Virus record (IMG/VR): IMGVR_UViG_3300035501_000704
Span: 1-64,000 of that record
Source of the DNA: a virus
Lineage: Duplodnaviria > Heunggongvirae > Uroviricota > Caudoviricetes
Length of the DNA: 64,000 nucleotides
Strand: one strand, 5' to 3'
Positions 27,809 through 55,788 of this stretch are shown in pieces. Under the pieces are notes generated by a model. The model made no database searches. It was not told the origin of the DNA and saw only the letters and a program-made list of their open reading frames with translations. Position numbers and translations under genes: made by a program. The number at the start of each line of letters is the position of its first letter. The first letter of the stretch is position 1.

Positions 27809-29038
27809 TTAAAGACCAACTATGCTCTTGTATAACTTAACTCTATCCTTGCAAACATTCTCTAACGAATATCTCTCAATTACCATCTTTCTTAAATTAT
27901 CCTGCATCTTTGTAACCACGTCAGGATTTTCAACCAAATATTTAATATACTTTGCCCACTGCTTATGGTTTCTTGATGGGTCAACCAATAATGCATTACC
28001 TTCCTCATTCACTACATTTCCCTTCTCCAAATATGGTACAAGGTCAATAGTATATGGGCCGTAATTCTCCGCAATGATGGCTGTTCCTGTAAAACCTGCT
28101 TCAATTACCTTTAATTGGCTCTTAACATAATTAAAATCATTTTCCTTTAATGGGGCTAACAATACGTCTACATTTTCATAATGTGTTCCATATTTTGAAA
28201 TATCTCTCGTCCAGAATCGTCTATAAAAATCATCCTTAAACGGGTCATCCATTCCCTTAACATATTGCTTCAAGAATGATATGTGTTCAGGATTCATACC
28301 TTTATAATTATTTGTAAGATATTCTTCATATCTACACCAAATGGATTCATATGGGGCAATATTTCGTCTTGTAACCTTACCTGTCTTATTATCATAAATG
28401 GTAGTTGTTCCATTTGTATCAAAACCACAAAGAACAATCTGCATCTTATTTCTAACCTCTGTAGGAAGCGAATCAAGCGCTTGAATCATTTGAATATCCT
28501 TCATGTGAGTTGAGCCACAAACCAATCCAAATCTTAGAATAGATGATTTGTTTTTCTTACAAGTGAATTGCTTATCATTTATATCAATGGCATTAGGAAC
28601 AACAACCACATTCTTATTATACCTTTTTAGCTTATTAGCGAACAGGGGTGTTGTGGTTGTAACACAAGTTGCATTTTCAAGATGCTTTACAACACTTTCT
28701 GACCAATGTTCCTTTTGAGATGTGATATACATAGGATGGTCTGGCCCAAGAATAAAATGGTCATCAATATCCAAAATTGTTGGAATGTTCAAGAATTTAA
28801 TTACATCCATAATCTTCAACTGATTATCCAACTGCTTATGAAATTGAATCAAATCATATTTTGATAAAAAAGATGACAAATCACTCTTAGGGAAATCCTG
28901 CAAATAAACAATATCTATATCAAATTCGTCCTTATAATGCTCTTGAATATAGATGTGTGGGTCTCCCTCTCTGAATTTATATACTCCTGTATAATCATCA
29001 GGAACGACAAGCATCTTTATTTTCTTATTTTCTTCCAT
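27809..29038 (-). CDS. GT-B fold glycosyltransferase (GT1/GT4-like)
   Basis: C-terminal E-x7-E-like LKVIEAGFTGTAIIAENYGPY. The 409-aa length is also typical. Confidence 0.45.
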   Translation of the reverse strand: MEENKKIKMLVVPDDYTGVYKFREGDPHIYIQEHYKDEFDIDIVYLQDFPKSDLSSFLSKYDLIQFHKQLDNQLKIMDVIKFLNIPTILDIDDHFILGPDHPMYITSQKEHWSESVVKHLENATCVTTTTPLFANKLKRYNKNVVVVPNAIDINDKQFTCKKNKSSILRFGLVCGSTHMKDIQMIQALDSLPTEVRNKMQIVLCGFDTNGTTTIYDNKTGKVTRRNIAPYESIWCRYEEYLTNNYKGMNPEHISFLKQYVKGMDDPFKDDFYRRFWTRDISKYGTHYENVDVLLAPLKENDFNYVKSQLKVIEAGFTGTAIIAENYGPYTIDLVPYLEKGNVVNEEGNALLVDPSRNHKQWAKYIKYLVENPDVVTKMQDNLRKMVIERYSLENVCKDRVKLYKSIVGL

Positions 29039-29221: not shown

Positions 29222-29995
29222 TTACAAATTAAAAATCAATTTATTTGGATATCCTACCGTATAATCATAAGACTTCAATGCTTCCAATGTAGTTAAAGTC
29301 TTAACTTCTGTCTTATGCTTTGCTGTGACATTGTAACATTCAAGTGCATAAACCTCAATTTCACTCAATATCTTAATTACATCATCACACTTCAAAACAA
29401 TACCAGTATCACCCAACCATAATGTAGTTGTTTCATTTCCCATTGACTTTGCAATCGTTGTGGAGTTCATAAGGCCAACTCTTGTTGCTTTATCCAACCA
29501 CATATCTGTGCCATTGAACGAGAATGAATTAACCTCTTCGCTTGAATCATATTTATTGATTGCTCTAAGTAATTTAATCTTCTCACTCTCGACAGTCTCA
29601 TCAATATCAATGTTCAATTGCTTACAAATAGATGTTGCGACTTGCTCTGCAAATTCAACCCAATTTGCCATTCTTTGATAAGCTTCATAATCTTCATCAG
29701 AATTTTCCTTATTAAGAATCAACAATACTTGGTCATTTCCTGAATATCGCATCTCAATAATTGCAGCTAAAATATCTTCATAAGTATTTAATTCTGCAAC
29801 CGGGAATGAAACATTATCCTCTGAACAAACAGCAACCTTATAAGCATTGAAGCTTCTAACAGCCAAATCAGATAAATCAATATCCAATTCCATTGTGCCA
29901 TCTTTCAAATCAATAGGCATTTCTAAACCTACATTAGCCCCATTCAATAAGAATTTACCAGGCTCAGCATATATTTTGTCATTTATTGTGTACAT
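29222..29995 (-). CDS. Hypothetical protein
   Basis: 257-aa ORF. Confidence 0.45.
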   Translation of the reverse strand: MYTINDKIYAEPGKFLLNGANVGLEMPIDLKDGTMELDIDLSDLAVRSFNAYKVAVCSEDNVSFPVAELNTYEDILAAIIEMRYSGNDQVLLILNKENSDEDYEAYQRMANWVEFAEQVATSICKQLNIDIDETVESEKIKLLRAINKYDSSEEVNSFSFNGTDMWLDKATRVGLMNSTTIAKSMGNETTTLWLGDTGIVLKCDDVIKILSEIEVYALECYNVTAKHKTEVKTLTTLEALKSYDYTVGYPNKLIFNL

Positions 29996-30016
29996 TATAT
30001 ATGTAAAAATTAATTA

Positions 30017-31354
30017 TTATTTATTGCTTACGGTTCTACCTAATATCTTCATATAAATATCAAGATTTTTAGATTTTAGAACCAATTCTTTATTTATTTT
30101 CGCTTTTAACTTAGCAATGCATGTCTCTTTTGAATTATGTTTTCTTAAATTATCATCAGAATCGCAATATTCCTTATAGATTGATACCTTGCTTAGATTA
30201 TCATTTGCTATATATAAATATTTAAAAATGAATTCTGAGTTTTTCCATTTGGTGAAAATCTTCGCTCTTATATTAAATGAGTTTCTATGTACCATAAATC
30301 CTAAATACGAATTTAATGTTGAAGCTAATTTATGAATAAGTTCAATATCATTTGGATATTTCTCGAATTCTTCCTTATATTCATCCAATTTATTATACAA
30401 GCTACCAACTGTTCTACTAATAATATATGTTCGATTAGGTTTGATAATTGTGCCAATAAATTGAATGCCCTTCGTTATATCTTGCATATAACATTTATTT
30501 GGATGTAATGTGACACCAAACTCTTTAACTTTCTCCATTATTTTCTTTCTACAATCTTTTAAAAATTCTTTATCTTGAGATATGATAAAGAAATCATCGA
30601 CGTATCTTCCATAATATTTACAACCTAACTCTTCCTTAACCCAATGGTCAAAATCAGAAAGATAAAAATTTGCAAATATTTGAGAAGTTAAATTACCGAT
30701 AGGAAGACCATGATAATCATCACAATAAAACAATGATTTATTCGTTGGTAATCCTTTCCACATATATTTAGGCTGCTTGAACACACAAGACATTGTTGGA
30801 TTATTAAAAACAACTCTATTGATTAACCATAAATTATATTCCAAATCTCTTTCGTTGAATTTTCCTGATTTAGTGAGGAAATTCTTTAATTTATCAAATA
30901 ATATATTTTTATCAATAGACATGAAGAATGATTTTAAATCACATTTAAGAATATATGCTTTCTTTGTATAATTCTCTGTACATTCCTCAATTTGTCTCTT
31001 ACATTGAAGCACACCGTATTCAACTCCTTTATTATCCCTACAAGAATATGAATCATCAATAAAATTATTTTCAAACAAATCATTGGTTCTACCAATAATT
31101 AAATGATGCACGATTCTGTCTCGAAAATCAGCAGCAAATACTTCTCTCTTAACAGGCTTTGTTACAATAAATGTAATACTCTTACCAATTTCATAGGTTT
31201 TACTATTCAAGTCAACCCATAACTTATATAATAAATTACATTCATCTATCTCAAATTTCATTGCATTTGCCGTTTTTCTTTTATGCCTCTGACAATCGTG
31301 GTATGCTGCCACTAATTCTTCAAATGACACGTATTCCTCGGTAAATGTTTTCAT
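30017..31354 (-). CDS. Diversity-generating retroelement reverse transcriptase
   Basis: RT motifs: FAADFRDRIVHH (domains 1/2), LPIGNLTSQIFANFYL with the DGR-specific I-G-x-x-x-S-Q, and the catalytic YVDDF. TR/VR pair immediately upstream. Confidence 0.9.
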   Translation of the reverse strand: MKTFTEEYVSFEELVAAYHDCQRHKRKTANAMKFEIDECNLLYKLWVDLNSKTYEIGKSITFIVTKPVKREVFAADFRDRIVHHLIIGRTNDLFENNFIDDSYSCRDNKGVEYGVLQCKRQIEECTENYTKKAYILKCDLKSFFMSIDKNILFDKLKNFLTKSGKFNERDLEYNLWLINRVVFNNPTMSCVFKQPKYMWKGLPTNKSLFYCDDYHGLPIGNLTSQIFANFYLSDFDHWVKEELGCKYYGRYVDDFFIISQDKEFLKDCRKKIMEKVKEFGVTLHPNKCYMQDITKGIQFIGTIIKPNRTYIISRTVGSLYNKLDEYKEEFEKYPNDIELIHKLASTLNSYLGFMVHRNSFNIRAKIFTKWKNSEFIFKYLYIANDNLSKVSIYKEYCDSDDNLRKHNSKETCIAKLKAKINKELVLKSKNLDIYMKILGRTVSNK

Positions 31355-31470
31355 AACATTCTATTGAATTTAAATGTTTATTATAATTTTTCCACATAGG
31401 GTATTTTTTTTAAATAAAAGATATTAGCTTACAATTTTATTTACAATTTATATTTTCTTCGAGGATTTCC

Positions 31471-31708
31471 GAAGAGCTGGGGGGACCCTCCCCTAAACCA
31501 AACAAACAACAAACTACTAATAATAGAAACTAAAACGGGAAACAACCCTCGCCTCACACGGCGAGGAAAGCTCGCACATAATTGCTATTGTTCTTATTGT
31601 TGTTGTTGACGTTACCACTATTAGTATTCACGTTCCAAGCATTGTTGGACGAATTCTCGGAACTTGACCAGTAATTGTTACCTGTATTCAACGTAACAAC
31701 GGACAACG
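31471..31708 (-). repeat. DGR template repeat (TR) plus shared downstream segment. The mutagenic part is about 31583–31687
   Basis: 238 nt homologous to 33280–33519. Adenine-rich on the coding (minus) strand, with AAC codon runs. It overlaps the listed 107-aa ORF 31554–31877, which is judged non-genuine. Confidence 0.9.
31547..31566 (-). other. GC hairpin (cctcgcc-tcacac-ggcgagg) in the TR copy
   Basis: 7-bp perfect stem with a 6-nt loop in an AT-rich context. The identical element overlaps the stop codon of the VR gene. Confidence 0.6.
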
Positions 31709-31900
31709 TTGTGCCAACTAAATAATTTATTAACACCATATCAAATAAGGTGTGTGGCACCCTTTTCAGATTATACCTCAAAGACTCATTTCCGCAGCAA
31801 TTAAATCCGTTTCCCATGAGACTTATATAACTTTTCGAGTTATATTTTTTATAGACAATATAAACTGCAAACAACATTGTAAACTAATCTCTTTTTTTTA

Positions 31901-32533
31901 TTATCCTTCTATCTTTTTTGCAATATTATTCTCTTTTTCGATTTCTGCTTTAATCGAATTTCTAAAAGAATAAATCTGGCCTAAGACACAACCAATTCTC
32001 TTAGTTAATTCAATAACGTGACTTTTAGGCGCAGCGTTAATAAAATCAAAAATACAAATATAATTTTCAATATCACGCATGGTTTCCATTGCTTCATCAC
32101 TCTTACTGAGCTTCTTATGCTTATTTGCTTCATAATATACAGAACTGTACTGATTTAAAGCTTTCATAAGCAATTTCAAGAAATCATAGCCATAAGCTTC
32201 CTTCATATTACGATTCATGGAATTAAGCATAATTGCAGCATATTTAATCGTGTCTTTAATATCAACATAAATCAACGTATTAAAAGCCTTACGAGTATTC
32301 TTACGCTTTATCTCATTATATTCATCTTCTGATTTAAAATTCTTATCAAAAAGATTTTTCATTTTCTCTTCAGTATTCTTCTTTACTGAATCATTACCAT
32401 TACTAACAGCCTTAGCAATAATATTTCCATCAGGAAGCTTCTTGCTATCCTTATTGTATGATGAGTTCGTCCCCACCAACTTTTCAAGCAGTGAGTTAAT
32501 ACTCATATCTGCTAATTTATGATTATTTATCAT
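31901..32533 (-). CDS. Candidate DGR accessory variability determinant (Avd-like)
   Basis: Lies between VR and TR as expected for avd. It is Lys-rich and basic. At 210 aa it is longer than typical Avd. No sequence motif confirmed. Confidence 0.35.
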   Translation of the reverse strand: MINNHKLADMSINSLLEKLVGTNSSYNKDSKKLPDGNIIAKAVSNGNDSVKKNTEEKMKNLFDKNFKSEDEYNEIKRKNTRKAFNTLIYVDIKDTIKYAAIMLNSMNRNMKEAYGYDFLKLLMKALNQYSSVYYEANKHKKLSKSDEAMETMRDIENYICIFDFINAAPKSHVIELTKRIGCVLGQIYSFRNSIKAEIEKENNIAKKIEG

Positions 32534-33236
32534 AATCTATAAAAATTTAAAAATTATTATTTTATAATCTATATGGCATTTTATTTACCTCTAATAATAA
32601 ATATCATCAATGTTCAAAAAATTCAACTACATTGCGATATTTTTTAAATAAAATGTAATATTTTTTTTATATTACAGAAGATAATACTATTTTTATATTA
32701 TCTATTGTGTAATCTGTTTCAATTACGAACTGTTATTTTCCATTATAAATTCCTTTATATATAATATACTAAATAAATAGTATTTTTCAAGTGTAAAATG
32801 CTAATTTTATGAAACTTTTTTCTATCTAAAATCATTATAAATTTATAAAGTGTTATATATCAATGATATACAAAATGAAATTATAGTAAAATTTTTTTCT
32901 TATTTAATAGATTTTTTCTGAATTTTATGTTTTAAATGGTGTAATTTCGCTTATTATTTATTACAATGTTTGTTTTATTCGTTTATTTTCGCAATAAAAA
33001 CAAAAAAATATGCTTATGTAAAAATACACAAGCATATCTAACTTTTACAAAAATATTTTTAGCACTTTACAGCTCTTGCTTACAGATTTAGCACATTTAC
33101 GCGATTTTATCGGGTATTAAAGCCTCAACGAGACATTGCAAATGTACTAAAATAAATCCACAATCTCAAGTAAATCTACGATTTTCTAACATAAAGTGTG
33201 GATAATTTAAGGAAATTTTATATAAGAACTAATATC

Positions 33237-33258
33237 CCCGCTCCGTTAAGGAGCAGGG
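33237..33258 (-). other. GC-rich hairpin just beyond the end of TR/VR homology
   Basis: cccgctcc-gttaa-ggagcagg: 8-bp stem with one mismatch inside a long AT-rich intergenic region. Confidence 0.4.
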
Positions 33259-33279
33259 ATGGTATGAAGTGGCTAAGCT

Positions 33280-33519
33280 GAAAAGCTGGGGGACCCTCCC
33301 CTAAACCAAACAAACAACAAACTACTAATAATAGAAACTAAAACGGGAAACAACCCTCGCCTCACACGGCGAGGAAAGCTCGCACATAATAGCTAGTGTA
33401 CTTATTGGCGAAGTAGTTGACGTAACCACTAAGAGTAAGCACGTACCAAGCATAGCTGGACGAATGCTCGGAACTTGACCAGTAAAGGTTACCTGTAATC
33501 AACGTAACAACGGACAACG
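33280..33519 (-). repeat. DGR variable repeat (VR) at the 3' end of the target gene. The variable part is 33391–33495
   Basis: Identical to the TR except for about 20 substitutions, all at TR coding-strand adenines, plus a 3-nt length difference. Confidence 0.9.
33355..33374 (-). other. GC hairpin overlapping the target stop codon (candidate cruciform downstream of the IMH)
   Basis: cctcgcc-tcacac-ggcgagg. It encodes the terminal ...FLAV* residues. Confidence 0.6.
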
Positions 33520-36500
33520 CCGGGTACTTCTTCGCAATCGCCGACAGTATGGTATTCAGCCTACCCATTCTTGGAATGATGTATGCCAATTCTCCGATAG
33601 CGGGAAGATACCAATCACCCTGTTGAGTGCCGACAACGCCTTCATCACCTGACACGTGATAACGCCAGCAACAACATGCGGCAGGATAATAGTTTGCCCC
33701 CGAACTGTTCTTGATGGTCTCAGCCAGATGCCAGTACATTTGCGACAACGCATAGTTGAGAATCTTCTCCGTATTACCAGCGCCATCCAAATCGCCACAA
33801 GAATTATTTGTAGTGTTCGCATCGTAATATCCTGACGCTCCTGACGCTAAGTCCGTCTCGTCCCTTGTCTCTGCGGATGCGTTGGTATAATAATATGGAT
33901 TCGGATAATCCGTCATCGTTCCGTCCTTTATAAGGTAAGGATTTTGACAAGCACCTGAAATTGAAGTGGTAGTAAAATCACGGTAGTAATACAAATTATC
34001 GGCATACGTTCCTTCCGTATTGTGGAACGTCAGATTTCCGTTATAATTCGTTTCGCTACCCATCTGAGAGCTATAATCTCCTAACTTCTTGTACAATCTT
34101 GGTGTTTTATTCTTATTAATAAGTTCAGGAATATCAAGTGTACCATATCCACCCCAAATAATACCACATCTTGAAGTACCACTTGTGCCAGCGTCAGGTG
34201 TGTTGTAACTCATTTCGTTGAGTGACATAATTCGAGCCGTACCAGCATAAGACTTATCCGTACCGCTATAAGATTCATTCGATAATCTTAAAGTATGACG
34301 CTTAGGAACAACACAAACACCGATAGGCAATTTACCAGTTGGGATTTCATCAATGGTTGAAACTAAAGAACCATCAGAGCAATAAATCCATCCGAAAGTA
34401 TCCAAAGCTTTTTCGCCTAAGTAAATGGCTCTTGTAACTGTAAACAATTCATCACCCATTGCGGGAACACTGCCACTTAAAACAGAATCATAAATGGTAG
34501 CTGTAAGTCTAACCGTCTTAATATCATCAGGGAACTTAGCACAAGTTAATCTAATTGAAGCATATTGATAATCTTCATCAGTATTATCCTTCTGATAATA
34601 ACCCATAGTTTGTCCTAAGATATCTGATGTTAAATAATCCTCATCATCAACTGACCAAACAACATAATAAGGTTTATTAACTAATGAGTTAATAGCTAAC
34701 TTATAATCAACCTTCGAATCCGTTGTAATAGAATCCAAAATAAATTCACCCTGAATAGAGGTAGAATTAGTATCAAGTGTTCTAAACGCATGGAAAATAA
34801 TTTTTTTCGAAGGATTATAATAGTTACCACTCTTATCCATAAATTGTGCAGTAAGAGTTACCTCACAATCTTCTGTCATGCCATAGGTACCACTATTAGT
34901 TAATGTAACAGCACTCGTGCTATCACTATCAGGAGTTAATGCCACAAAAGCATTATTATCAACTGACCATGAAACATCTCCGTCAATATCAATAGCATAA
35001 GTTGCTAAAGAATACTTTTCAGATTTCATTGCTTCCAAATCATCGGAACCGAAAATTGTATTATAAGGATTAATAAAGTTAAAGGCTAATCCATCAATCT
35101 CATTATAACCAGGCCAGAATGAATTTATCTTATCGGCAATATTCTCTTCAAAGTCAGTAACATTGATTGAACCAGTCAAAGATAAAGAACTTACTTTACC
35201 TAATACAGTAGTATATAATTCTTTCAATTTATCAGAATCAATACTCCAATAGATATTAGAAATAGAAATTGTCTTTGCAGATAATTCATATTTACTTGTA
35301 TCAGTATTACCGGAAGTATTTCCTGAAGTTGTAGCTGAGGTAGCATACTTTTGAATATTATTATACCAATCAAGAATCCATTGATAATTATATCCAAAAT
35401 AATCATTTGTATTATCAGGATTACCATCACATACAATCGTTATTGATTCAAGGCCTACATAATTTTTCAACAATAACTGTTGCATATTACAATTAGGGGC
35501 CTTATTGATTGTTAACGTAGTCAAAGAAGATAATGACGGTAGTGTAACATTCTTCAAAGAGTTAGATTGTGGAAGCTTAACTTCAGAAGAATGGGTATTC
35601 TCAAGATAAACTGTCTTTAATCTATAATAATTTGTTAAATCAACAGTAGAAGACAATGTTGTAACATTTGACAAATCAAGTTTCTCAATTGTTTGTGGTA
35701 AAGTTTCAATATCAGTAATATTAAATGTTGGGTTTGTACCACCACCAATGAAAGATGTTACACGTTTTGAATTAAACTTTAATGACTTATTAACAACACT
35801 TGGACTAATAAACTTATTAGACCAGTCACCCATATCTGACATATATTCAATACCAACAATAGTAGATGTGTCGGTTGAACCATTGTTAGGCAATGTTAAT
35901 GCCACCTTTCCACCAGGACTCAACAATGTTGGGTGATTCTGCTGATAATTATTCTCGCCTTGCAAAGAATATGCATACATATGTGCTGCGGCTGTTACAG
36001 TAACACTATTATTACCACCACTCAATGCATAACCGAATTTATTCAAACCATTAGAATACATTGCAAATGTTTTCATAAAGAAAACTCTCATCTTAACATA
36101 TTGCTTCTCTCCTTCCAAACAATCACCCATAGACATTGTTATAGGGTTTGAGTTCTTTGAAATGTTAAATGCCTCAACTCCACTTTGATTTAATATTTCA
36201 GCCTCTTCATATAATAATCTTGCGGTTTCATTATAAGCAACAGCTGGGAAATAATTTTGAACAGAGAAATAATATCTATTAAAACATCCCATGATACTAT
36301 CGTTGTCAATAATATATGAAGAGTTTGAACCAAGGCTTGACATTGCTCCAATCATTTTATTCATGATTGTTCTAATTGAAGGAGTGTCTTTGACATTTCT
36401 ATCAATAAAGTCTTGCAAATATACATAAAGCAATGTTCCATAGTATCCACTGTTATTTGCAGTAAAATAATTTACAGTATTACCCTTATCATCCTTATGT

Positions 36501-39500
36501 GTTGTATAATATTCAGCCCAATAAGGTTTATCCTTCATACCTTCATTATTGATACGGAAAATCGTATCATCATCATCACGCCATGGTCTAATTTTCGGTC
36601 TACCAACAGTATTTATTGTTTTATCAACTAAGAAATATTGATTTTTCGATAAATTATCAGATGCGGCAATAAATAATGTAAAACAGAAACATAAAAGAAC
36701 TTCTTCTATATCTACATATTCATTAATGTTAGCACGTAACTTAGCGGCTCTTGCTCTTCTAAAGATAGTTGTTTTGTTGGCGGTGCTTAATTGATTGAAG
36801 GCAGTCAATCTATCACCATCCATAGAACCAGTTAAGCCACTTGTACAACCAGAATAAACATTAGGAATTGAACCATTCTCTTTAAAGATGTTTTCTGTAA
36901 AATACCCATCTAAGTCTTCAATAAGGTCTAATTTTGCTGAAATTGTATTACCTTCTTCATCTTTTGTTGTACCAGCATCTACCCATACATAATTGACATA
37001 ATCATGGCGCATGGCATAATACTTACTATCTGTCGTATCATAATACCAATACTGATATGTCTTATCAAGGTTTTTAAGATTAGAAAAATCTGAGCTAGAA
37101 GTAGCCGAGCATCCAGAAAGTCTATGACTGCATGAATAAACAAAATTCAAATAATCTTGTACATATCCAATTGAAGCATCGTTACCTAATTCAAGGTCAA
37201 AAGCTTCTTGTGATGTACTTCCACCATTATCATCCTTTCTATTGAATATAAATTCCTCTTTTCCATCAAATTTTACTTCATCTGTTAACCAAGGGCTATG
37301 GCAAAGTGTAATAGGACATTCCTGATTAGAACCGCCAACCATTAGCATTTCAGGTGTCTTCTTCTTATCATATCCGAAAGTGGCTTTATCGCCCTTACCA
37401 GCTCCCCAAGTCATAAGGCCATAAAACACAGGAGCAGAATCTGTAGGAGTCTTAACAAAGAATAAGAATTCATCCTCTCTTACCGACATTCTTGATAATT
37501 CAAGTCCTTCAGTTTGCTGAATTTCACTCTTAAATCCTAACAAATTACGTATATCCTCATACATTCTCAATGAACCTTGTTTATGGCTTTGCATTGAAGA
37601 CGCATAATTAAGCTTGCCAACAAGCTTTGTTGCCTTTGGTGTTACAGCCACATATTCTCCAGTTGAAGAATCTTCCTCAGAATAAACATAATAATTATGG
37701 TCTGGAATTTCTTGGCCATATATATCAAGATAAGAGCTATTATCACCAAACTTCCATGAACCATTCCACTTATAATATGTTTTTGCTGTGGAACCTTGAC
37801 CCTTACAAATGGCTTTTTTAATTATACATGAATTAACTGTATCAACTTCATAATTTCCATCAGCATCTTTAGTTGATTTCACATATCTTACTGTCAAATC
37901 ACCTTCTGTTCCATTTTCTTCATCAAGTTTATTGATATAGCAAGGATATGCATCACCTTCCCAAAGTAAAGTTCTATATTTCTTACAAGCTTCTGCATAA
38001 GAAATTTCATTACCAACTGAAGTAATATCATTTCTATCACTAAAATCTTGCTTTTTTGCTAATGAGGGTAATGAAGATAGATAATCCTTTTGAATTTCAA
38101 CCGAATCAAGACGTGTATTTTGATATATTCTAATACCATACAAATCAACGTCAGCTGTATCTGAACCAATAATAATACTATTAACACCATAATGAATATT
38201 ATTTGAGCCAGGGTTATACAAATACTCTCTATTGATTACACCATTGATATACATACGAACAATGTTCTTAGTATAATCCGTACCATTTATCGAAAGAGTA
38301 TAATCAGGTAAAATATTCAAAGCTAAATGTGTTCGTGTGTCTTCTTGATATTCAACCTCCTTTGTTAATAATACACCATTTTGATTATTCAGTAAGAAGT
38401 AAGCAACATTAGGATACATTGATAGTCCTTCCATTGTAGAACCGCTATCAACACTATGGCTAGTTGCTAAATTGATTACAATATTTGAATCATCTGATAC
38501 ATTTCTAATTGCAAAATCAACTTCAACTGTTATAGGTGATTTTAAATTTTTATCTTCAAAAACATTATATGGAATATTTACTTTTGAGCCAGCAAGAATT
38601 CTAAGGCACTTAGAACCATCACTATCAGCAATCCAACCGCCATTCAACCAGTCCATATTCGTCCAAGTTGTTCCTGTTAATGCATCGCCATTATATTTGT
38701 TGTAAATGACTTCTTTGTCCGCATCAATATTAGAACGTCCTTTTGGAGAGAAAATAAAGCCACCAGCCATTTGTGTTGGTGAATAATTTGCCTGAGAATT
38801 GATAAAGAAAGTTGATTGTGCCAAATATTCAGTATTATTGTCAATTGCCACAGTACTATTAGCATCATAAGCCCTCATAATAGCTGTAACGCCAGTCACA
38901 CCTTCATTTAATTCAATTTCAGTTTGTGATTTAAAGTTGTTTACAATACCAGATTTAACATCGGATTCAGTATATTCAGCATACTTTTCAGAAAAATCTT
39001 CATTCCATAAAATAAACTTAATATCAGCTGTTGTTTTTCCATAAATCGCATAAGAAAAATATGTATTTTCTGCCCAGTTATAAATTGTGTTTGATGCATT
39101 GTTTATAGACAATTTTAAATCTGTAGAATCAGCTTTTAACACACAAAATTGAAATTCAAGTTTATCTGTTTGCAATGTTTCATTTACATAAGCAAATGCA
39201 GTACCTGTGTAGTTTCCTGGGCGCAATGTACTACCCAATGGAATATTTGTTGTTTTCGTACCGACCAAACTACCTTGTGAATGTGTACATGGAATGCCAT
39301 CAATATAAGAAACGGTAAATTGGTTTTCTCCACCGTCTTCCAATTCATTTATTGTAACATATAAAGTCTTTGAAAGCACACCAGTAGTGTTAAATGAAAG
39401 GCCACCAGGATTATTTTCATAACGAATAACCTTAATAGAGTCATTACTATATGCTAAAGTAAGAGTTGTATATGTTACAGTATACTTAGCTGAGTTTGAT

Positions 39501-40147
39501 GCATTAGAATCATCAGCAGACCAAGTTAAACGCACCTGAGTTGTTGTATCGACAGATATAAAGTCACTAATATCATATTTCTTAAAACCAGCATCTTCTG
39601 CTGTTTCAATAGACGATACATAAGCAACGCTTCTTTTTTTTGTGAAATAAGAACTTCCTTCAGATGCGGTATAAACTGTAAGTGTACCTGATTTTTCTAC
39701 AATCTTTGCTTCCGCATCAGCAGGTGTTTTCAAATAATACACAGGTTTAATTGTTGCATATACCTTACCGTCAATTGTTGTAACAGTAGTATTACCACTA
39801 GTGTATAAATAAGCAGATTCCTTATTGACTGTTGCAACAGCTTCAAGCCCAGGAATCACACAGCTAAACAAAGCATTGTTGCTGTAGCTCTCTTTATCTG
39901 AAACCCAGTCCTCATAACTCTTTTGGTCTGCAAAACCAATAAGATACATATTATTATCTGTATCACCACTAGTAACTGTAGTATATCCAACTTTTGTGTC
40001 AAGGGCACTATTACAATCTTTGATTTTTTGCTTGATAAAGTCCTGGATAGCTTTACCACTAAACGGAAGGCTATTATCTTCTTTATCACAACCCCAGTCT
40101 TGTTCAAAAGATGTAAGTGAATTATTGCTAGTTTTTCTTACCGCCAT
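33362..40147 (-). CDS. DGR target: a giant 2261-aa fibre or receptor-binding-like protein with a C-terminal DUF1566/C-type-lectin-like variable domain
   Basis: The VR lies in the last about 45 codons (...YWSSSEHSSSYAWYVLTLSGYVNYFANKYTSYYVRAFLAV). There is an LRR-like segment (LDLSNVTTLS...LKNVTLPSLSSLTTLTI). The rest is Thr/Ser/Asn/Tyr/Gly-rich, fibre-like. Confidence 0.85.
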   Translation of the reverse strand: MAVRKTSNNSLTSFEQDWGCDKEDNSLPFSGKAIQDFIKQKIKDCNSALDTKVGYTTVTSGDTDNNMYLIGFADQKSYEDWVSDKESYSNNALFSCVIPGLEAVATVNKESAYLYTSGNTTVTTIDGKVYATIKPVYYLKTPADAEAKIVEKSGTLTVYTASEGSSYFTKKRSVAYVSSIETAEDAGFKKYDISDFISVDTTTQVRLTWSADDSNASNSAKYTVTYTTLTLAYSNDSIKVIRYENNPGGLSFNTTGVLSKTLYVTINELEDGGENQFTVSYIDGIPCTHSQGSLVGTKTTNIPLGSTLRPGNYTGTAFAYVNETLQTDKLEFQFCVLKADSTDLKLSINNASNTIYNWAENTYFSYAIYGKTTADIKFILWNEDFSEKYAEYTESDVKSGIVNNFKSQTEIELNEGVTGVTAIMRAYDANSTVAIDNNTEYLAQSTFFINSQANYSPTQMAGGFIFSPKGRSNIDADKEVIYNKYNGDALTGTTWTNMDWLNGGWIADSDGSKCLRILAGSKVNIPYNVFEDKNLKSPITVEVDFAIRNVSDDSNIVINLATSHSVDSGSTMEGLSMYPNVAYFLLNNQNGVLLTKEVEYQEDTRTHLALNILPDYTLSINGTDYTKNIVRMYINGVINREYLYNPGSNNIHYGVNSIIIGSDTADVDLYGIRIYQNTRLDSVEIQKDYLSSLPSLAKKQDFSDRNDITSVGNEISYAEACKKYRTLLWEGDAYPCYINKLDEENGTEGDLTVRYVKSTKDADGNYEVDTVNSCIIKKAICKGQGSTAKTYYKWNGSWKFGDNSSYLDIYGQEIPDHNYYVYSEEDSSTGEYVAVTPKATKLVGKLNYASSMQSHKQGSLRMYEDIRNLLGFKSEIQQTEGLELSRMSVREDEFLFFVKTPTDSAPVFYGLMTWGAGKGDKATFGYDKKKTPEMLMVGGSNQECPITLCHSPWLTDEVKFDGKEEFIFNRKDDNGGSTSQEAFDLELGNDASIGYVQDYLNFVYSCSHRLSGCSATSSSDFSNLKNLDKTYQYWYYDTTDSKYYAMRHDYVNYVWVDAGTTKDEEGNTISAKLDLIEDLDGYFTENIFKENGSIPNVYSGCTSGLTGSMDGDRLTAFNQLSTANKTTIFRRARAAKLRANINEYVDIEEVLLCFCFTLFIAASDNLSKNQYFLVDKTINTVGRPKIRPWRDDDDTIFRINNEGMKDKPYWAEYYTTHKDDKGNTVNYFTANNSGYYGTLLYVYLQDFIDRNVKDTPSIRTIMNKMIGAMSSLGSNSSYIIDNDSIMGCFNRYYFSVQNYFPAVAYNETARLLYEEAEILNQSGVEAFNISKNSNPITMSMGDCLEGEKQYVKMRVFFMKTFAMYSNGLNKFGYALSGGNNSVTVTAAAHMYAYSLQGENNYQQNHPTLLSPGGKVALTLPNNGSTDTSTIVGIEYMSDMGDWSNKFISPSVVNKSLKFNSKRVTSFIGGGTNPTFNITDIETLPQTIEKLDLSNVTTLSSTVDLTNYYRLKTVYLENTHSSEVKLPQSNSLKNVTLPSLSSLTTLTINKAPNCNMQQLLLKNYVGLESITIVCDGNPDNTNDYFGYNYQWILDWYNNIQKYATSATTSGNTSGNTDTSKYELSAKTISISNIYWSIDSDKLKELYTTVLGKVSSLSLTGSINVTDFEENIADKINSFWPGYNEIDGLAFNFINPYNTIFGSDDLEAMKSEKYSLATYAIDIDGDVSWSVDNNAFVALTPDSDSTSAVTLTNSGTYGMTEDCEVTLTAQFMDKSGNYYNPSKKIIFHAFRTLDTNSTSIQGEFILDSITTDSKVDYKLAINSLVNKPYYVVWSVDDEDYLTSDILGQTMGYYQKDNTDEDYQYASIRLTCAKFPDDIKTVRLTATIYDSVLSGSVPAMGDELFTVTRAIYLGEKALDTFGWIYCSDGSLVSTIDEIPTGKLPIGVCVVPKRHTLRLSNESYSGTDKSYAGTARIMSLNEMSYNTPDAGTSGTSRCGIIWGGYGTLDIPELINKNKTPRLYKKLGDYSSQMGSETNYNGNLTFHNTEGTYADNLYYYRDFTTTSISGACQNPYLIKDGTMTDYPNPYYYTNASAETRDETDLASGASGYYDANTTNNSCGDLDGAGNTEKILNYALSQMYWHLAETIKNSSGANYYPAACCCWRYHVSGDEGVVGTQQGDWYLPAIGELAYIIPRMGRLNTILSAIAKKYPALSVVTLITGNLYWSSSEHSSSYAWYVLTLSGYVNYFANKYTSYYVRAFLAV

Positions 40148-52621: not shown

Positions 52622-53389
52622 TTAAGAGAATAGAAATTCAGCTTCTTCTATATCAAAAACTTGCATTCTCATCTCATTTAATGCTCTCATTTTGATTTGT
52701 CTTACTCGCTCAGTGCTTATATTTAATTCAACACTAATCTCTTCAAGACTTTGGCCATCATCGTCTTTTTCTAACCCATAATACTTTTCAACGACAATTC
52801 GCTCTCTCTTTGGAAGTTTTGCAAGTAATTCCTTAACAACAACTTTCTTTTGTTTTTCTTCTTCATCCCTTTCAAGATTATTCAAAATATCATCCTTAAC
52901 GTCCATCATAGATACCTTATAGCCATCATCCTCAACTTGTAAAAGCTCATCACTGGCATCTTGTGGAGTTTCATCATAAACTGGAAATATTTCTTCAAAG
53001 CTAACTTCAGATTCTTTCATTATATTTTTATCCTCAATAGCTTTAATCATCTTCTGTCTAATCCACCATACAGCGTAAGAGAAGAATTTAATGTCTTTGG
53101 ATGGGTCAAATAAATTGAAAGCCTTCAACAATCCTTTATTCCCTTCTGAGATTAAATCAGCAATTGAAACACCTTTCCCTCTATATTTCTTTGCGATATT
53201 AAAAACAAATCGCAAATTTGATGAGAGAATCTTATTTCTTGCTTCGACATTACCTTCCTTTGCCAAAGCCATCAATTCTTTCTCCTTTTCTCTTGTAAGT
53301 GGTTTGCATTTCTGCAAATCCTTAAAATACATTTTTACGCTGTCAGTAAAATCGTTATTACCTACATTCTGGCTATCAACGTTTAACAT
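52622..53389 (-). CDS. Sigma-70 family RNA polymerase sigma factor
   Basis: Region 2: NLRFVFNIAKKYRGKGVSIADLISEGNKGLLKAFNLFDPSKDIKFFSYAVWWIRQ. Region 4: LEEISVELNISTERVRQIKMRALNEMR. Confidence 0.85.
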   Translation of the reverse strand: MLNVDSQNVGNNDFTDSVKMYFKDLQKCKPLTREKEKELMALAKEGNVEARNKILSSNLRFVFNIAKKYRGKGVSIADLISEGNKGLLKAFNLFDPSKDIKFFSYAVWWIRQKMIKAIEDKNIMKESEVSFEEIFPVYDETPQDASDELLQVEDDGYKVSMMDVKDDILNNLERDEEEKQKKVVVKELLAKLPKRERIVVEKYYGLEKDDDGQSLEEISVELNISTERVRQIKMRALNEMRMQVFDIEEAEFLFS

Positions 53390-55788
53390 TAAACATTTAA
53401 TTTTCCTCTATTATAAACATCATTAAGGGAGGATATTCCGTCACTGTTCTTTGTTACTGTAACAATTTGATTACTCCATTCCTTAATTTCATCCAAATGT
53501 GTGATTTGGAATACAAAATCATAATCCTTTGAAATACGTTCAAAAAGAATATTCATCTTGTCATAATTCTCCTTAGCAACTCTTCCCAAAATTTCATCAT
53601 AGATACAGAAATTCAATCTCGGAATATTACTAATATCAGCAAGAACACTTCTTAATGCTAATGCTGTTGCAGTTCTCTCAAAACCACTTGCAGACTTAAT
53701 ATTTGAAGACTGGCCGTTTTTAATAATGTTAAATGCTACTTCATTCTTGTTATTGATTGATACGTTTACATCAAAGTCACAAACATCTTCAAGAATTTGA
53801 GCCAATCTTGCGTTAATAATAGGCAATGTTTTTCTCATTACCATCTTAGAAATACCATTCTTACCAACCATTTCAAGGTATAACTTCCAATTGAATACCA
53901 CCTTTTCTTCTTGATTGATTTTATCGATAATATCATTTCTCTTTACAATCTCATTATTATATTGCTCAGTTAAGTTCTTATTACCAACAAGAACTCTGAT
54001 ATTATTCTCTCTAAGTGTTCGCTTCGTATTGATTTCTGTATCAATATTTCTTACCTTAATATCAATATTATTATTCTTATCAATAGCGTCAGCATTTTTA
54101 TTGTATTCTGCTTCCCTATCAATAAGCTCCTTATATTCAGCTCTTAATTTTTCAAGACTTAATTCAAGAATTGGTTTCTGATTGTTCAACGAATTAAGTT
54201 TGTTATATTTTTCCATATTCTCCTTCATTGAAGTAATCTGATTCTCAATGTTATTCACATTTTCGGTAATCTTCTTACCTTCCTCAATCAAATTATCCAA
54301 TGAATCCTGATTCTCCTTAATTTGCTTTGAATTATCGACATTATCAAGCTTCTTGCCACATGTAGGGCAATATTCACTTGTTTTTAATTGATTTATCAGA
54401 TTCATCAATCTATGGGCCTCAGTTCTTGCGTTCTGCTGTTCTAACATTGCAGACATCTTATCGGCTAACAGTTTATCATACTTTTCAATGGAAAAATCAA
54501 CCTCACCAATGTTGTTTATTTCATTGATAACATTATTAAGCATTTGCTTTTTTTGAACACCTTCATTCTTTTTTGCCTGAATGTTGTTTCTCAATGTTGT
54601 AATATCAATTTTCAATAAATCTTTATCTGTGATTGATTTTGACGCCAATGCCTCTGTCTTTTGATTTTCAAGCTCTTTAATCTCCTTATCAAAGACAGCA
54701 TTATTGTTTTCACTCTTAATGGTACTTTCTTTCAAATTCTCAATTTCAACATTATAGGCTTCAATTTCTTGTTTTAATGTTTCTCTATTGAATTGATTTG
54801 TTAATAAACGAGGTTTAATAGAGCTATTAAAATAATCTCTTGCTAATGTATCCTTTGCTTCAAGAGGGAGCAAGCCAATCCAACGAGAGAATAATCTACC
54901 TCTATCTGTAGGTTTTTCATTGATAAGAGAATCAAGATTACTACCAGTAATACACATCATAAGGTCAAAGTCCTCTTCACGACCAATAGATTCCTTAATA
55001 ATCTTATTTGTTTGACGTGTATCTACACCATTCTCAACTTCAACATAATCTTCAAGGGATTCAAGATTCTCCCCTACTAATCTATAATATTCAACCTTTT
55101 GAGTTACCTTACTCTTAGCACTTCTATTAGACAATTTAGGTCTTGAAAGTGTTCTCTTAATGATATAATTCTCACCTTCAATAACAATACATCCTTCAAC
55201 AGTTACATTTGTAGCTTCAGGAAGATTCTTATTAAAGATTTCATCTTGTGTTTCTACCTTTGTTGATTTACCAAACAATAAGAAATGCAAAAGGTCTACA
55301 GCAAAAGTTGTCTTACCACTTTGATTAGCAGGTTCACCATTTAATAAGACAATACCATTTAAGGTTGTAAAATCAAAGTAATTAGATTCACCGTATGATT
55401 GGAAATTAGAAAACTTAATCCATTTAAGAGAAAACTTTCTAAACTTATCATAAACTTGATAGTCAACCTTTGAGTTAAGTTCCTTATCTATTGAAAGAAT
55501 ATAATCAAAATCATAATTCTTAACATCATTCACTTTAATATATTCCTGAAATAATTTTTCTTGGAATATAGGGTCTTGAATATTATCTATTACATCATTA
55601 GTAATAGATTTATTCTCTCCGTTCTCATCAACTACAATAAAATCAGCACACAATTTAATATTCTCTTTCAAAAGACCATATTTCTTTGCAAATAGCGCAA
55701 TGATTTCTTTAGCCTTTTCAGGAGAATAATCATAAGGAGTTACCTTCCAATGTAACTTTACTTTTCCTTTTTTACTTATTTCAATCAT
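53389..55788 (-). CDS. sbcC: SbcC/Rad50-like recombination ATPase (T4 gp46-like) with an about 120-aa N-terminal extension
   Basis: Walker A GEPANQSGKTT, long coiled coils, and a CPTCG zinc-hook motif. Confidence 0.75.
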   Translation of the reverse strand: MIEISKKGKVKLHWKVTPYDYSPEKAKEIIALFAKKYGLLKENIKLCADFIVVDENGENKSITNDVIDNIQDPIFQEKLFQEYIKVNDVKNYDFDYILSIDKELNSKVDYQVYDKFRKFSLKWIKFSNFQSYGESNYFDFTTLNGIVLLNGEPANQSGKTTFAVDLLHFLLFGKSTKVETQDEIFNKNLPEATNVTVEGCIVIEGENYIIKRTLSRPKLSNRSAKSKVTQKVEYYRLVGENLESLEDYVEVENGVDTRQTNKIIKESIGREEDFDLMMCITGSNLDSLINEKPTDRGRLFSRWIGLLPLEAKDTLARDYFNSSIKPRLLTNQFNRETLKQEIEAYNVEIENLKESTIKSENNNAVFDKEIKELENQKTEALASKSITDKDLLKIDITTLRNNIQAKKNEGVQKKQMLNNVINEINNIGEVDFSIEKYDKLLADKMSAMLEQQNARTEAHRLMNLINQLKTSEYCPTCGKKLDNVDNSKQIKENQDSLDNLIEEGKKITENVNNIENQITSMKENMEKYNKLNSLNNQKPILELSLEKLRAEYKELIDREAEYNKNADAIDKNNNIDIKVRNIDTEINTKRTLRENNIRVLVGNKNLTEQYNNEIVKRNDIIDKINQEEKVVFNWKLYLEMVGKNGISKMVMRKTLPIINARLAQILEDVCDFDVNVSINNKNEVAFNIIKNGQSSNIKSASGFERTATALALRSVLADISNIPRLNFCIYDEILGRVAKENYDKMNILFERISKDYDFVFQITHLDEIKEWSNQIVTVTKNSDGISSLNDVYNRGKLNV

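Follow-up and report, generated by a model that had tools for sequence, protein, structure and literature searches.

A long non-coding tail shared by the template and target repeats of a phage DGR, and the structures that differ in their flanks

How can a DGR distinguish its template from its target when the two repeats share the same 3' segment? In phage BPP-1, a handful of differences between IMH and IMH* sets the direction of homing (PMC5758913, PMC5703328), and a sequence-only reading of the locus described here assumed that such a difference gives directionality in characterized DGRs generally. That is correct for BPP-1 but does not hold as a universal rule (PMC5758913, PMC7290462). Wu et al. 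2018 (PMC5758913) describe some DGRs with identical predicted IMH and IMH*, in which recognition must consequently reach further downstream, and Morozova et al. 2020 (PMC7290462) describe a crAss-like phage (crAssphage LMMB) with the same identity. Here we analyze a 64,000-nt stretch of phage DNA (hereafter the window) in which the two repeats remain identical far beyond the stop codon of the target gene. The minus strand of the window carries the element, with the sense order target gene and VR, accessory ORF, TR and RT:

33362-40147, minus strand: target gene, a 2261-aa ORF (ORF list) with the VR at its C-terminal end
33391-33519, minus strand: variable part of the VR, with all substitutions relative to the TR at TR adenines
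33284-33390, minus strand: VR tail, the final 9 codons and stop followed by 78 nt of non-coding sequence, which matches the TR tail
31901-32533, minus strand: accessory ORF of 210 aa (ORF list), in the usual Avd position between VR and TR
31582-31708, minus strand: TR template for the variable part, with 46 adenines and the same sequence in the window and in the sister assemblies L087 and L088
31476-31581, minus strand: TR tail, equal to the VR tail in the TR/VR alignment except for a C6 run
31355-31455, minus strand: remainder of the spacer, A-rich by base composition, from a TR-only hairpin to the RT gene
30017-31354, minus strand: DGR reverse transcriptase (RT) of 445 aa (RVT_1, E = 1e-20)

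In protein-coding targets the VR typically lies at the C-terminus of a C-type-lectin-fold domain, and the C-terminal part of this target scores 32 bits against Lcl_C (C-type-lectin-like), just under the 34.9-bit cut-off. The RT translation contains IGNLTSQ and YVDD, which correspond to the DGR-type I/LGxxxSQ and YxDD motifs, and its best annotated relatives are the RTs of DGR-bearing phages. All 18 substitutions between the VR and the variable part of the TR in the window occur at TR adenines. The VR also has one codon more than the TR (AAC TAC TTC GCC AAT versus AAC AAC AAC AAT). Because the sister VRs of L087 and L001 lack this codon and the L087 TR is the same as that of the window, the extra codon arose during homing or later; indels opposite AAC repeats are a recognized feature of DGRs according to Wu et al. 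2018 (PMC5758913). By all of the sequence criteria that could be checked, the system is a DGR. A 750-nt, AT-rich intergenic stretch separates the VR from the accessory ORF, and the complete spacer between TR and RT (31475-31355) is 121 nt long and 46% A.

For the accessory ORF, sequence searches of Pfam, PHROG and PDB gave no match, and no homologues were found outside the phage lineage of the window. It is predicted with low confidence to be all-helical (pLDDT 47 in a single-sequence AlphaFold model). ORFs at the same position in related elements encode 134-139 aa, and those of two relatives (L006 and L094) are weakly bAvd-like. Avd itself is found in most DGRs, not all. A near-consensus promoter-like site (TTGATA-18-TATAAT) is present at 32863-32834, upstream of the accessory ORF. 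The window as a whole has 31% G+C. When the accessory ORF and nine large ORFs were scanned against PHROGs, only two matched: 53389-55788 to an SbcC-like protein and 27809-29038 to a glycosyltransferase. The nearest DGR relatives are located on viral contigs 279-356 kb in length, and this size points to a very large, poorly characterized phage as the source. One of these contigs bears two DGR RTs (L005 and L030).

Past the last variable position, TR nucleotides 31581-31476 and VR nucleotides 33390-33284 are identical over 106 nt except in one homopolymer. On the plus strand this run is G6 at 31479-31484 in the TR and G5 at 33288-33292 in the VR, or C6 and C5 in the sense orientation; the difference had been seen by the sequence-only reading, which placed the runs 1-2 nt away from these positions. 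The target stop codon, TGA, occupies plus-strand positions 33362-33364, and identity extends for another 78 nt, or for 82 nt when the border, which matches in part, is included, in agreement with the original estimate of about 80 nt. At the border the sense sequences diverge as CAGCT-CTTCGG (TR) and CAGCT-TTTCAG (VR), which are the gaagag and gaaaag first recognized at the far end of the repeat. A match of 106 of 107 nt in a genome with 31% GC, together with a distal motif that is unique within the 64 kb, is not due to chance.

Two hairpins are encoded within the shared tail:

33355-33374, minus strand: hairpin 1 in the VR, CCTCGCC-GTGTGA-GGCGAGG, with 7 bp and the stop codon within its 6-nt loop
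31547-31566, minus strand: copy of hairpin 1 in the TR, with the same sequence
33288-33301, minus strand: distal hairpin in the VR, GGGGA-GGG-TCCCC, which includes the C5 run (GGGGAGGG hairpin) and within which the 3' limit of transfer falls

The arms of hairpin 1 lie on the plus strand at 33355-33361 (cctcgcc) and 33368-33374 (ggcgagg), so that the 7-bp GC hairpin already described as overlapping the stop codon is indeed found in both copies. It is followed by TTGTTT and is terminator-like in each. The non-coding part of the tail is also markedly poor in adenine, with 9 A in the 78 nt after the stop codon (12%). The corresponding values are 37% across the strand, 46% for the TR spacer next to the tail and 40% for the intergenic region between VR and accessory ORF. 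This depletion (binomial P ~4e-7) ceases at the homology border, and it is what would be expected of a sequence that is exposed to adenine-specific mutagenesis and yet bound to stay constant. The DNA on the VR side folds far below shuffled sequences (z = -4.9), and the TR tail with its spacer folds modestly better than shuffles (z = -2.1).

Sister assemblies of the same phage lineage, reached through RT and accessory-protein searches, show that the element is active and that its tail takes part in transfer. They comprise L001/L002 (RT 99% identical), L087, L088, L089 and L090. The TRs of the window, L087 and L088 are identical, and the VRs of the window and L087 differ at many TR-A sites; divergent VRs beside the same TR imply an active DGR. 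Pooled over three genomes, the VR differs from the TR at 61 of 144 A sites and at 0 of 243 non-A sites. The TRs of the window and L001 are distinguished by four non-A differences in the stretch of homology that precedes the distal hairpin. One of these is in the tail, and all four are mirrored in the VR of the same genome. The mirrored tail site (TR 31497, VR 33305) is T/T in the window lineage and C/C in L001. Since each VR has the base of its own TR at all four sites, we conclude that the tail is copied from TR to VR.

Only two substitutions separate any VR tail of this lineage from its own TR tail: an A>T in L087 (equivalent to 33332) and an A>G in L001 (equivalent to 33329). They lie 30 and 33 nt beyond the stop codon, and both are changes in the VR at TR adenines. 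With an adenine content of 11% in the tail, both changes would hit an A with a probability of ~0.013. Change at tail adenines (2 of 36) is nevertheless far rarer than at coding adenines (61 of 144; Fisher P = 1e-5). Three readings fit this rarity: purifying selection, higher RT fidelity, or homing that mostly resolves upstream of the tail. Several of the remaining tail adenines sit in the stop codon or in hairpins.

The C6 run defines where this copying ends. It is present in the TRs of the window, L087 and L088 and in none of the VRs of the window, L087 and L090, even though the VRs of this lineage have been rewritten since they diverged. Because the run has never been copied, the 3' limit of transfer falls between 31497 and 31484, inside the distal hairpin. 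L001 and L002 have C5 in both TR and VR, so run length is specific to a lineage and is not a conserved mark of either repeat. The border nucleotide after CAGCT, by comparison, is C in the TR and T in the VR throughout the window, L001, L087, L088 and L090. All of this comparative evidence comes from metagenome assemblies over a repeat, and informative events in the tail are few: a single concerted site, two changes at A and an indel that was not transferred. A residual chance remains that mis-phasing of repeat copies in the assemblies affects the concerted site and the two A changes. Taken together, the tail shared by the sisters, the mirrored TR change, the restriction of differences to A sites and the 12% A content indicate that the tail is most likely reverse-transcribed template.

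The tail is unusually long. With an RT alignment as query, 80 viral loci and 80 genomic ones were recovered; 121 of them have A-biased TR/VR pairs, and homology in these pairs usually ends within a few nucleotides of the target stop (median near -2). The window lineage, with +74 to +82, is one lineage among the 121 related pairs, and the other largest well-supported values are +31 (L006), +23 (L016), +22 (L005) and +14 (L094). A value of +26 for L153 comes from a 54-nt match only. An apparent +97 for L034 is an ORF-calling artefact, as its VR has frameshifting indels. In a distant subclade (L024, L058 and L076), the VRs of different phages end in CGCTTG and the corresponding TRs in CGATTR or CGCATA. 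These look like fixed differences of the IMH/IMH* type that happen to fall on TR adenines, where they could be miscounted as mutagenesis.

The closest of the related elements, L091 (RT 63% identical), L005/L003 (53-54%) and L006 (51%), are mostly on viral contigs of 280-356 kb. They share with the window the RT clade, a target C-terminus of RAFLAV or RAFLRV, a structured motif in the 5' TR flank and an A-poor extension, although the post-stop homology of L005 and L006 is only 22-31 nt. The TRs of L091 and L005/L003 end in CAGCTCT, as in the window, and L005, whose flanks are otherwise unrelated (RT 53% identical), has the identical C (TR) and T (VR) difference after CAGCT. The L091 TR has an A-poor, GT-rich extension of ~55 nt past its stop equivalent; this value describes the TR only, since the VR was not recovered. 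A target-protein homologue search ruled out L178 as its VR partner, and the candidates L179-L181 differ in layout. L091 also has a hairpin that spans its Phe-Leu-Ala codons and stop, as hairpin 1 does in the window, but the sequences differ (CUA:UAG, versus CUC:GAG in the window); L005 has no convincing hairpin 1. The GU-rich linker that follows differs in length among the window, L091 and L005 and has no conserved pairing. In form, the tail resembles a GU-rich linker of expandable length, bounded by a stop-codon hairpin on one side and a conserved terminal motif on the other, and it is longest in the window lineage. The sequence-only reading had named one outcome that would undermine its case, a gene-conversion artefact confined to this genome; diverged sisters share the tail, and relatives have shorter forms of it with the same terminal motif.

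Several other searches returned nothing. A DNA search of the region against a phage collection gave no match, a search of IMG/VR with the single RT found no close relative (the RT alignment was needed instead), and exact-pattern scans of IMG/VR for the hairpin and tail were empty. The metagenome exact-pattern matches L085 and L086 are unrelated, high-GC chance hits. Literature text searches found no report in DGRs of a shared non-coding stretch of ~80 nt or of A changes beyond a stop codon.

Set against BPP-1 (mtd-VR, avd, TR, brt), the window element has the same gene order and the same strictly A-specific differences between TR and VR. In both systems the repeats have a G+C-rich, A-poor segment at their 3' ends, the VR flank contains a GC-rich hairpin past the homology that the TR flank lacks, and the RNA that flanks the TR is absent from the VR. 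Marker transfer also ends within a G/C-rich element near the end of homology in each: here the marker at 31497 is transferred and the C6 run at 31479-31484 is not. The two systems differ in the invariant segment itself. In BPP-1 it spans 35 bp, (GC)14 plus a 21-bp IMH, and IMH* is not the same as IMH. In the window it spans 106 nt with no internal substitution, and the first fixed difference is found at the border. The invariant segment of the window, unlike that of BPP-1, reaches 78-82 nt past the stop codon and places a stop-codon hairpin in both copies. Identity between the window RT and the Bordetella phage RTs is ~30% or less, and the latter rank below the 25 best phage-database matches. 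The accessory ORF has no Avd similarity, unlike BPP-1 avd.

The DGRs of Wu et al. and Morozova et al. are like the window in that their invariant 3' segments are indistinguishable, which leaves discrimination to sequences farther downstream or to the flanks. Cases of identical IMH and IMH* are already on record, and the window element is a known kind of DGR with a rare tail length. What appears to be uncommon is the length of the invariant segment, its reach of ~80 nt into non-coding sequence, and the co-conversion and occasional A mutation of this non-coding part.

The flanks of donor and recipient differ as well, and four structures are predicted there:

31707-31768, minus strand: structured RNA motif directly 5' of the TR, the sole match to covariance model R1 in the window
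31456-31475, minus strand: TR-only hairpin, TCTTCGG-AAATCC-TCGAAGA, with 7 pairs in both the minimum-free-energy and centroid structures
33234-33260, minus strand: VR-only GC-rich hairpin with loop TTAAC, 24 nt beyond the end of homology
33006-33039, minus strand: AT-rich hairpin of 15 pairs followed by a T run (TTTTTGTTTTT), in canonical terminator form

The 5' motif is composed of AAAAGGG, the 5' arm of P1, a C, P2, GUUAAG, AG-N and the 3' arm of P1. In the window, these elements are AAAAGGG, P1 (GTGCCA/TGGCAC), P2 (ACACC/GGTGT) and GTTAAT. P1 is a 6-bp helix, P2 is an inner hairpin, and the 3' arm of P1 stops two nucleotides short of the start of homology. Of 158 loci, 34 have a strict version of the pattern in the zone 100-450 nt upstream of the RT, at a density of 0.61 per kb there versus 0.015 per kb elsewhere (a 40-fold enrichment). 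Further sites include the following, and others exist:

L005, 7689-7760: 5' motif
L006, 7675-7733: 5' motif
L007, 1504-1572: 5' motif
L093, 452-531: 5' motif
L094, 3628-3694: 5' motif
L061, 7867-7922: 5' motif
L113, 3734-3791: 5' motif

The motif is represented by 19 distinct P1 arm pairs. Its loops vary so much that a MAFFT alignment was unusable, and a trimmed seed of 19 sequences was used in its place; 98.9% of the cells in this seed pair, 8 of the 10 pairs have compensatory changes, and covariation scores 0.93, versus 0.24 in shuffles and at most 0.27 with slid partners. The pairedness of P1 is circular because P1 members were selected for pairing. Fairer evidence is provided by the 40-fold positional enrichment and by P2, although the P2 partners were set by eye. 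Model R1 found no match near the VR when the 64-kb window was searched, Rfam gave no match across 29500-34500 at a permissive threshold, and we found no description of the motif in the literature searched. Its position suggests that it may be a handle for the RT or accessory protein as well as a barrier to reverse transcription. The cPRT Stop of BPP-1 (preprint 10.1101/2023.10.23.563531) is comparable in role, not in architecture. A pairing between the motif (AGGGU, CCACA) and the spacer (ACCCU, UGUGG) was also considered and rejected, as the order of the halves forbids a duplex and UGUGG is absent in L001.

The TR-only hairpin begins exactly at the homology border, where its stem ends in an A. 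Structure prediction of the TR 3' region, a check proposed at the outset, recovered both hairpin 1 and this hairpin, and the latter shows no covariation. By analogy to the template:primer duplex of BPP-1 (TR117-129:Sp47-56), it could be a candidate duplex that presents a priming adenosine. Complementarity between TR ends and spacers is not enriched across 105 elements of the clade (mean z = +0.12), so a priming role for the hairpin remains a guess.

The VR-only hairpin has 11 pairs, including one G-T and 7 G-C, and occurs in all sister VR flanks and not in the TR flank. It lacks a proper T run. Judging from its form, the hairpin at 33039-33006 is probably where transcription of the giant target gene really ends, which would place both the VR tail and the VR-only hairpin within the target 3' UTR. 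Because the VR-only hairpin has no T run and a canonical terminator lies downstream of it, a role like that of the BPP-1 hairpin/cruciform is plausible. VR-side hairpins of phage DGRs have a 7-10 bp stem and a 4-nt GRNA loop and are located 4-34 bp from the VR (PMC3240598). The BPP-1 hairpin is 4 bp after the VR with the stop codon between them; the VR-only hairpin of the window is 24 nt out and has a 5-nt loop that is not GRNA. VR ends at 105 loci are complementary to their own downstream flanks above the level of shuffles (mean z = -0.64, with 29% below -1.64), which fits the known VR-side inverted repeats, and TR ends have no such signal.

These flank structures lend more support to another idea of the sequence-only reading, that this element marks its donor and recipient differently: the 5' motif and a hairpin are specific to the TR and another hairpin to the VR, and the flanks may be what supplies the mark. 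Starting from the observed repeat, its A-specific variation, the concerted change, the transfer limit, the A depletion and the flank-specific structures, we infer a start site, a mode of priming and roles for the three hairpins and the 5' motif. Reverse transcription of the accessory-TR-RT transcript would begin at the distal end of the tail or slightly past it, near CAGC|UCUUCG and ~80 nt downstream of the equivalent of the target stop. The resulting cDNA would include the coding template together with the tail and would carry the two into the VR, with the tail serving as a long, nearly mutation-proof 3' homology arm. Homing direction would be set by the flanks and not by differences within the tail. 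On the TR side, the two-helix motif upstream would be a probable RT or accessory-protein handle and reverse-transcription stop, and the hairpin directly downstream a possible cis-primer. On the VR side, the marks would be the border T in place of C and the GC-rich hairpin 24 nt on, which resembles the target-side hairpin/cruciform of BPP-1.

Two aspects of BPP-1 are relevant to the proposed start site. Its cDNA starts in a G+C-rich, adenine-free stretch (PMC6182149), and the first base to be copied lies 5-10 nt downstream of its co-conversion boundary, TR107-112 (PMC5703328). If the first copied base in the window is the C of CAGC, then the untransferred C run would lie within the corresponding 5-10 nt zone that BPP-1 leaves unconverted. 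Overall, we consider it moderately probable that the tail is a real, non-coding, A-depleted 3' template extension of an active DGR whose direction comes from its flanks.

Direction might instead be set by the border nucleotide, the C (TR) or T (VR) after CAGCT, perhaps with a second difference 4 nt on, and the flank hairpins would then be secondary. This possibility is compatible with a reverse-transcribed tail, it has a precedent in the few IMH/IMH* differences that decide direction in BPP-1, and the border difference is common to the window, L001, L087, L088, L090 and L005. These genomes represent three lineages at most, however, and the difference sits at the extreme edge of homology, where unrelated flanks must start to differ. 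The run length, which is the other candidate difference, is not conserved. We judge this explanation unlikely. The earlier suggestion that the functional IMH/IMH* distinction resides in the distal few nucleotides consequently loses the run, with its five residues in both copies of L001/L002, and keeps the border, whose conservation in the sisters and L005 leaves this alternative open.

A passive tail is quite improbable. In such a scenario, cDNA synthesis would start near the stop codon and hairpin 1, like in those relatives whose repeats stop matching at the stop codon, and the tail would be maintained by RecA-type conversion between direct repeats 1.8 kb apart or would be a leftover of TR duplication. 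The 121 related pairs do normally end their homology within a few nucleotides of the stop, A sites in the tail are rarely altered (2 of 36), and hairpin 1 with TTGTTT is terminator-like in both copies and could truncate the TR transcript. Gene conversion nevertheless leaves three things unexplained: the jump from 12% A on the tail side of the border to 46% A beyond it, the placement of both tail differences at TR adenines and exclusively in the VR, and the halt of conversion in every genome before the C run, which is 4 nt from the border. Any transfer is also one-way, since the TR is invariant while the VR varies. Even less can be said for a tail that functions mainly as an RNA or DNA structural module, in which hairpin 1, the GU-rich linker and the distal hairpin would be required either for RT loading on the TR transcript or as a 3' UTR or terminator of the target, with the other copy as a by-product. 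In its favor, L091 retains hairpin 1 at the same codons despite a change in its sequence, and the fold energies are low (z = -4.9 on the VR side and, more modestly, z = -2.1 for the TR tail and spacer), but the GU-rich linker varies in length among the window, L091 and L005 without conserved pairing, L005 has no convincing hairpin 1, and there is no Rfam match. A structural role alone predicts neither A depletion nor A-specific changes, and we regard it as very improbable.

If the tail is a template extension, as we favor, then this element is informative in several respects. Discrimination between template and target, the start of cDNA synthesis and the joining of cDNA have been worked out for one phage only, and the window provides a natural case with no internal difference between IMH and IMH*. 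The transferred segment reaches well into non-coding DNA, so natural markers place its 3' limit within ~15 nt. Three candidates for the mark of donor or recipient emerge: the border base, the TR-only structured RNA and the VR-only hairpin. The covarying 5' motif, found in dozens of related elements, is a target for structure and binding studies, and adenine depletion as a shield for a long homology arm may be a practical design rule for engineered DGR mutagenesis. More tentatively, and with the balance somewhat against it, a large clade made up of phage and Bacteroidota-type DGRs might specify donor identity through the two-helix 5' motif, which would replace the Sp-centered architecture of BPP-1, and in the lineage of the window the cDNA start would have moved ~80 nt past the stop codon and an adenine-free non-coding buffer would have evolved. 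If this is true, then mutagenic retrohoming in these phages would routinely rewrite the 3' UTR of the target gene in addition to its codons.
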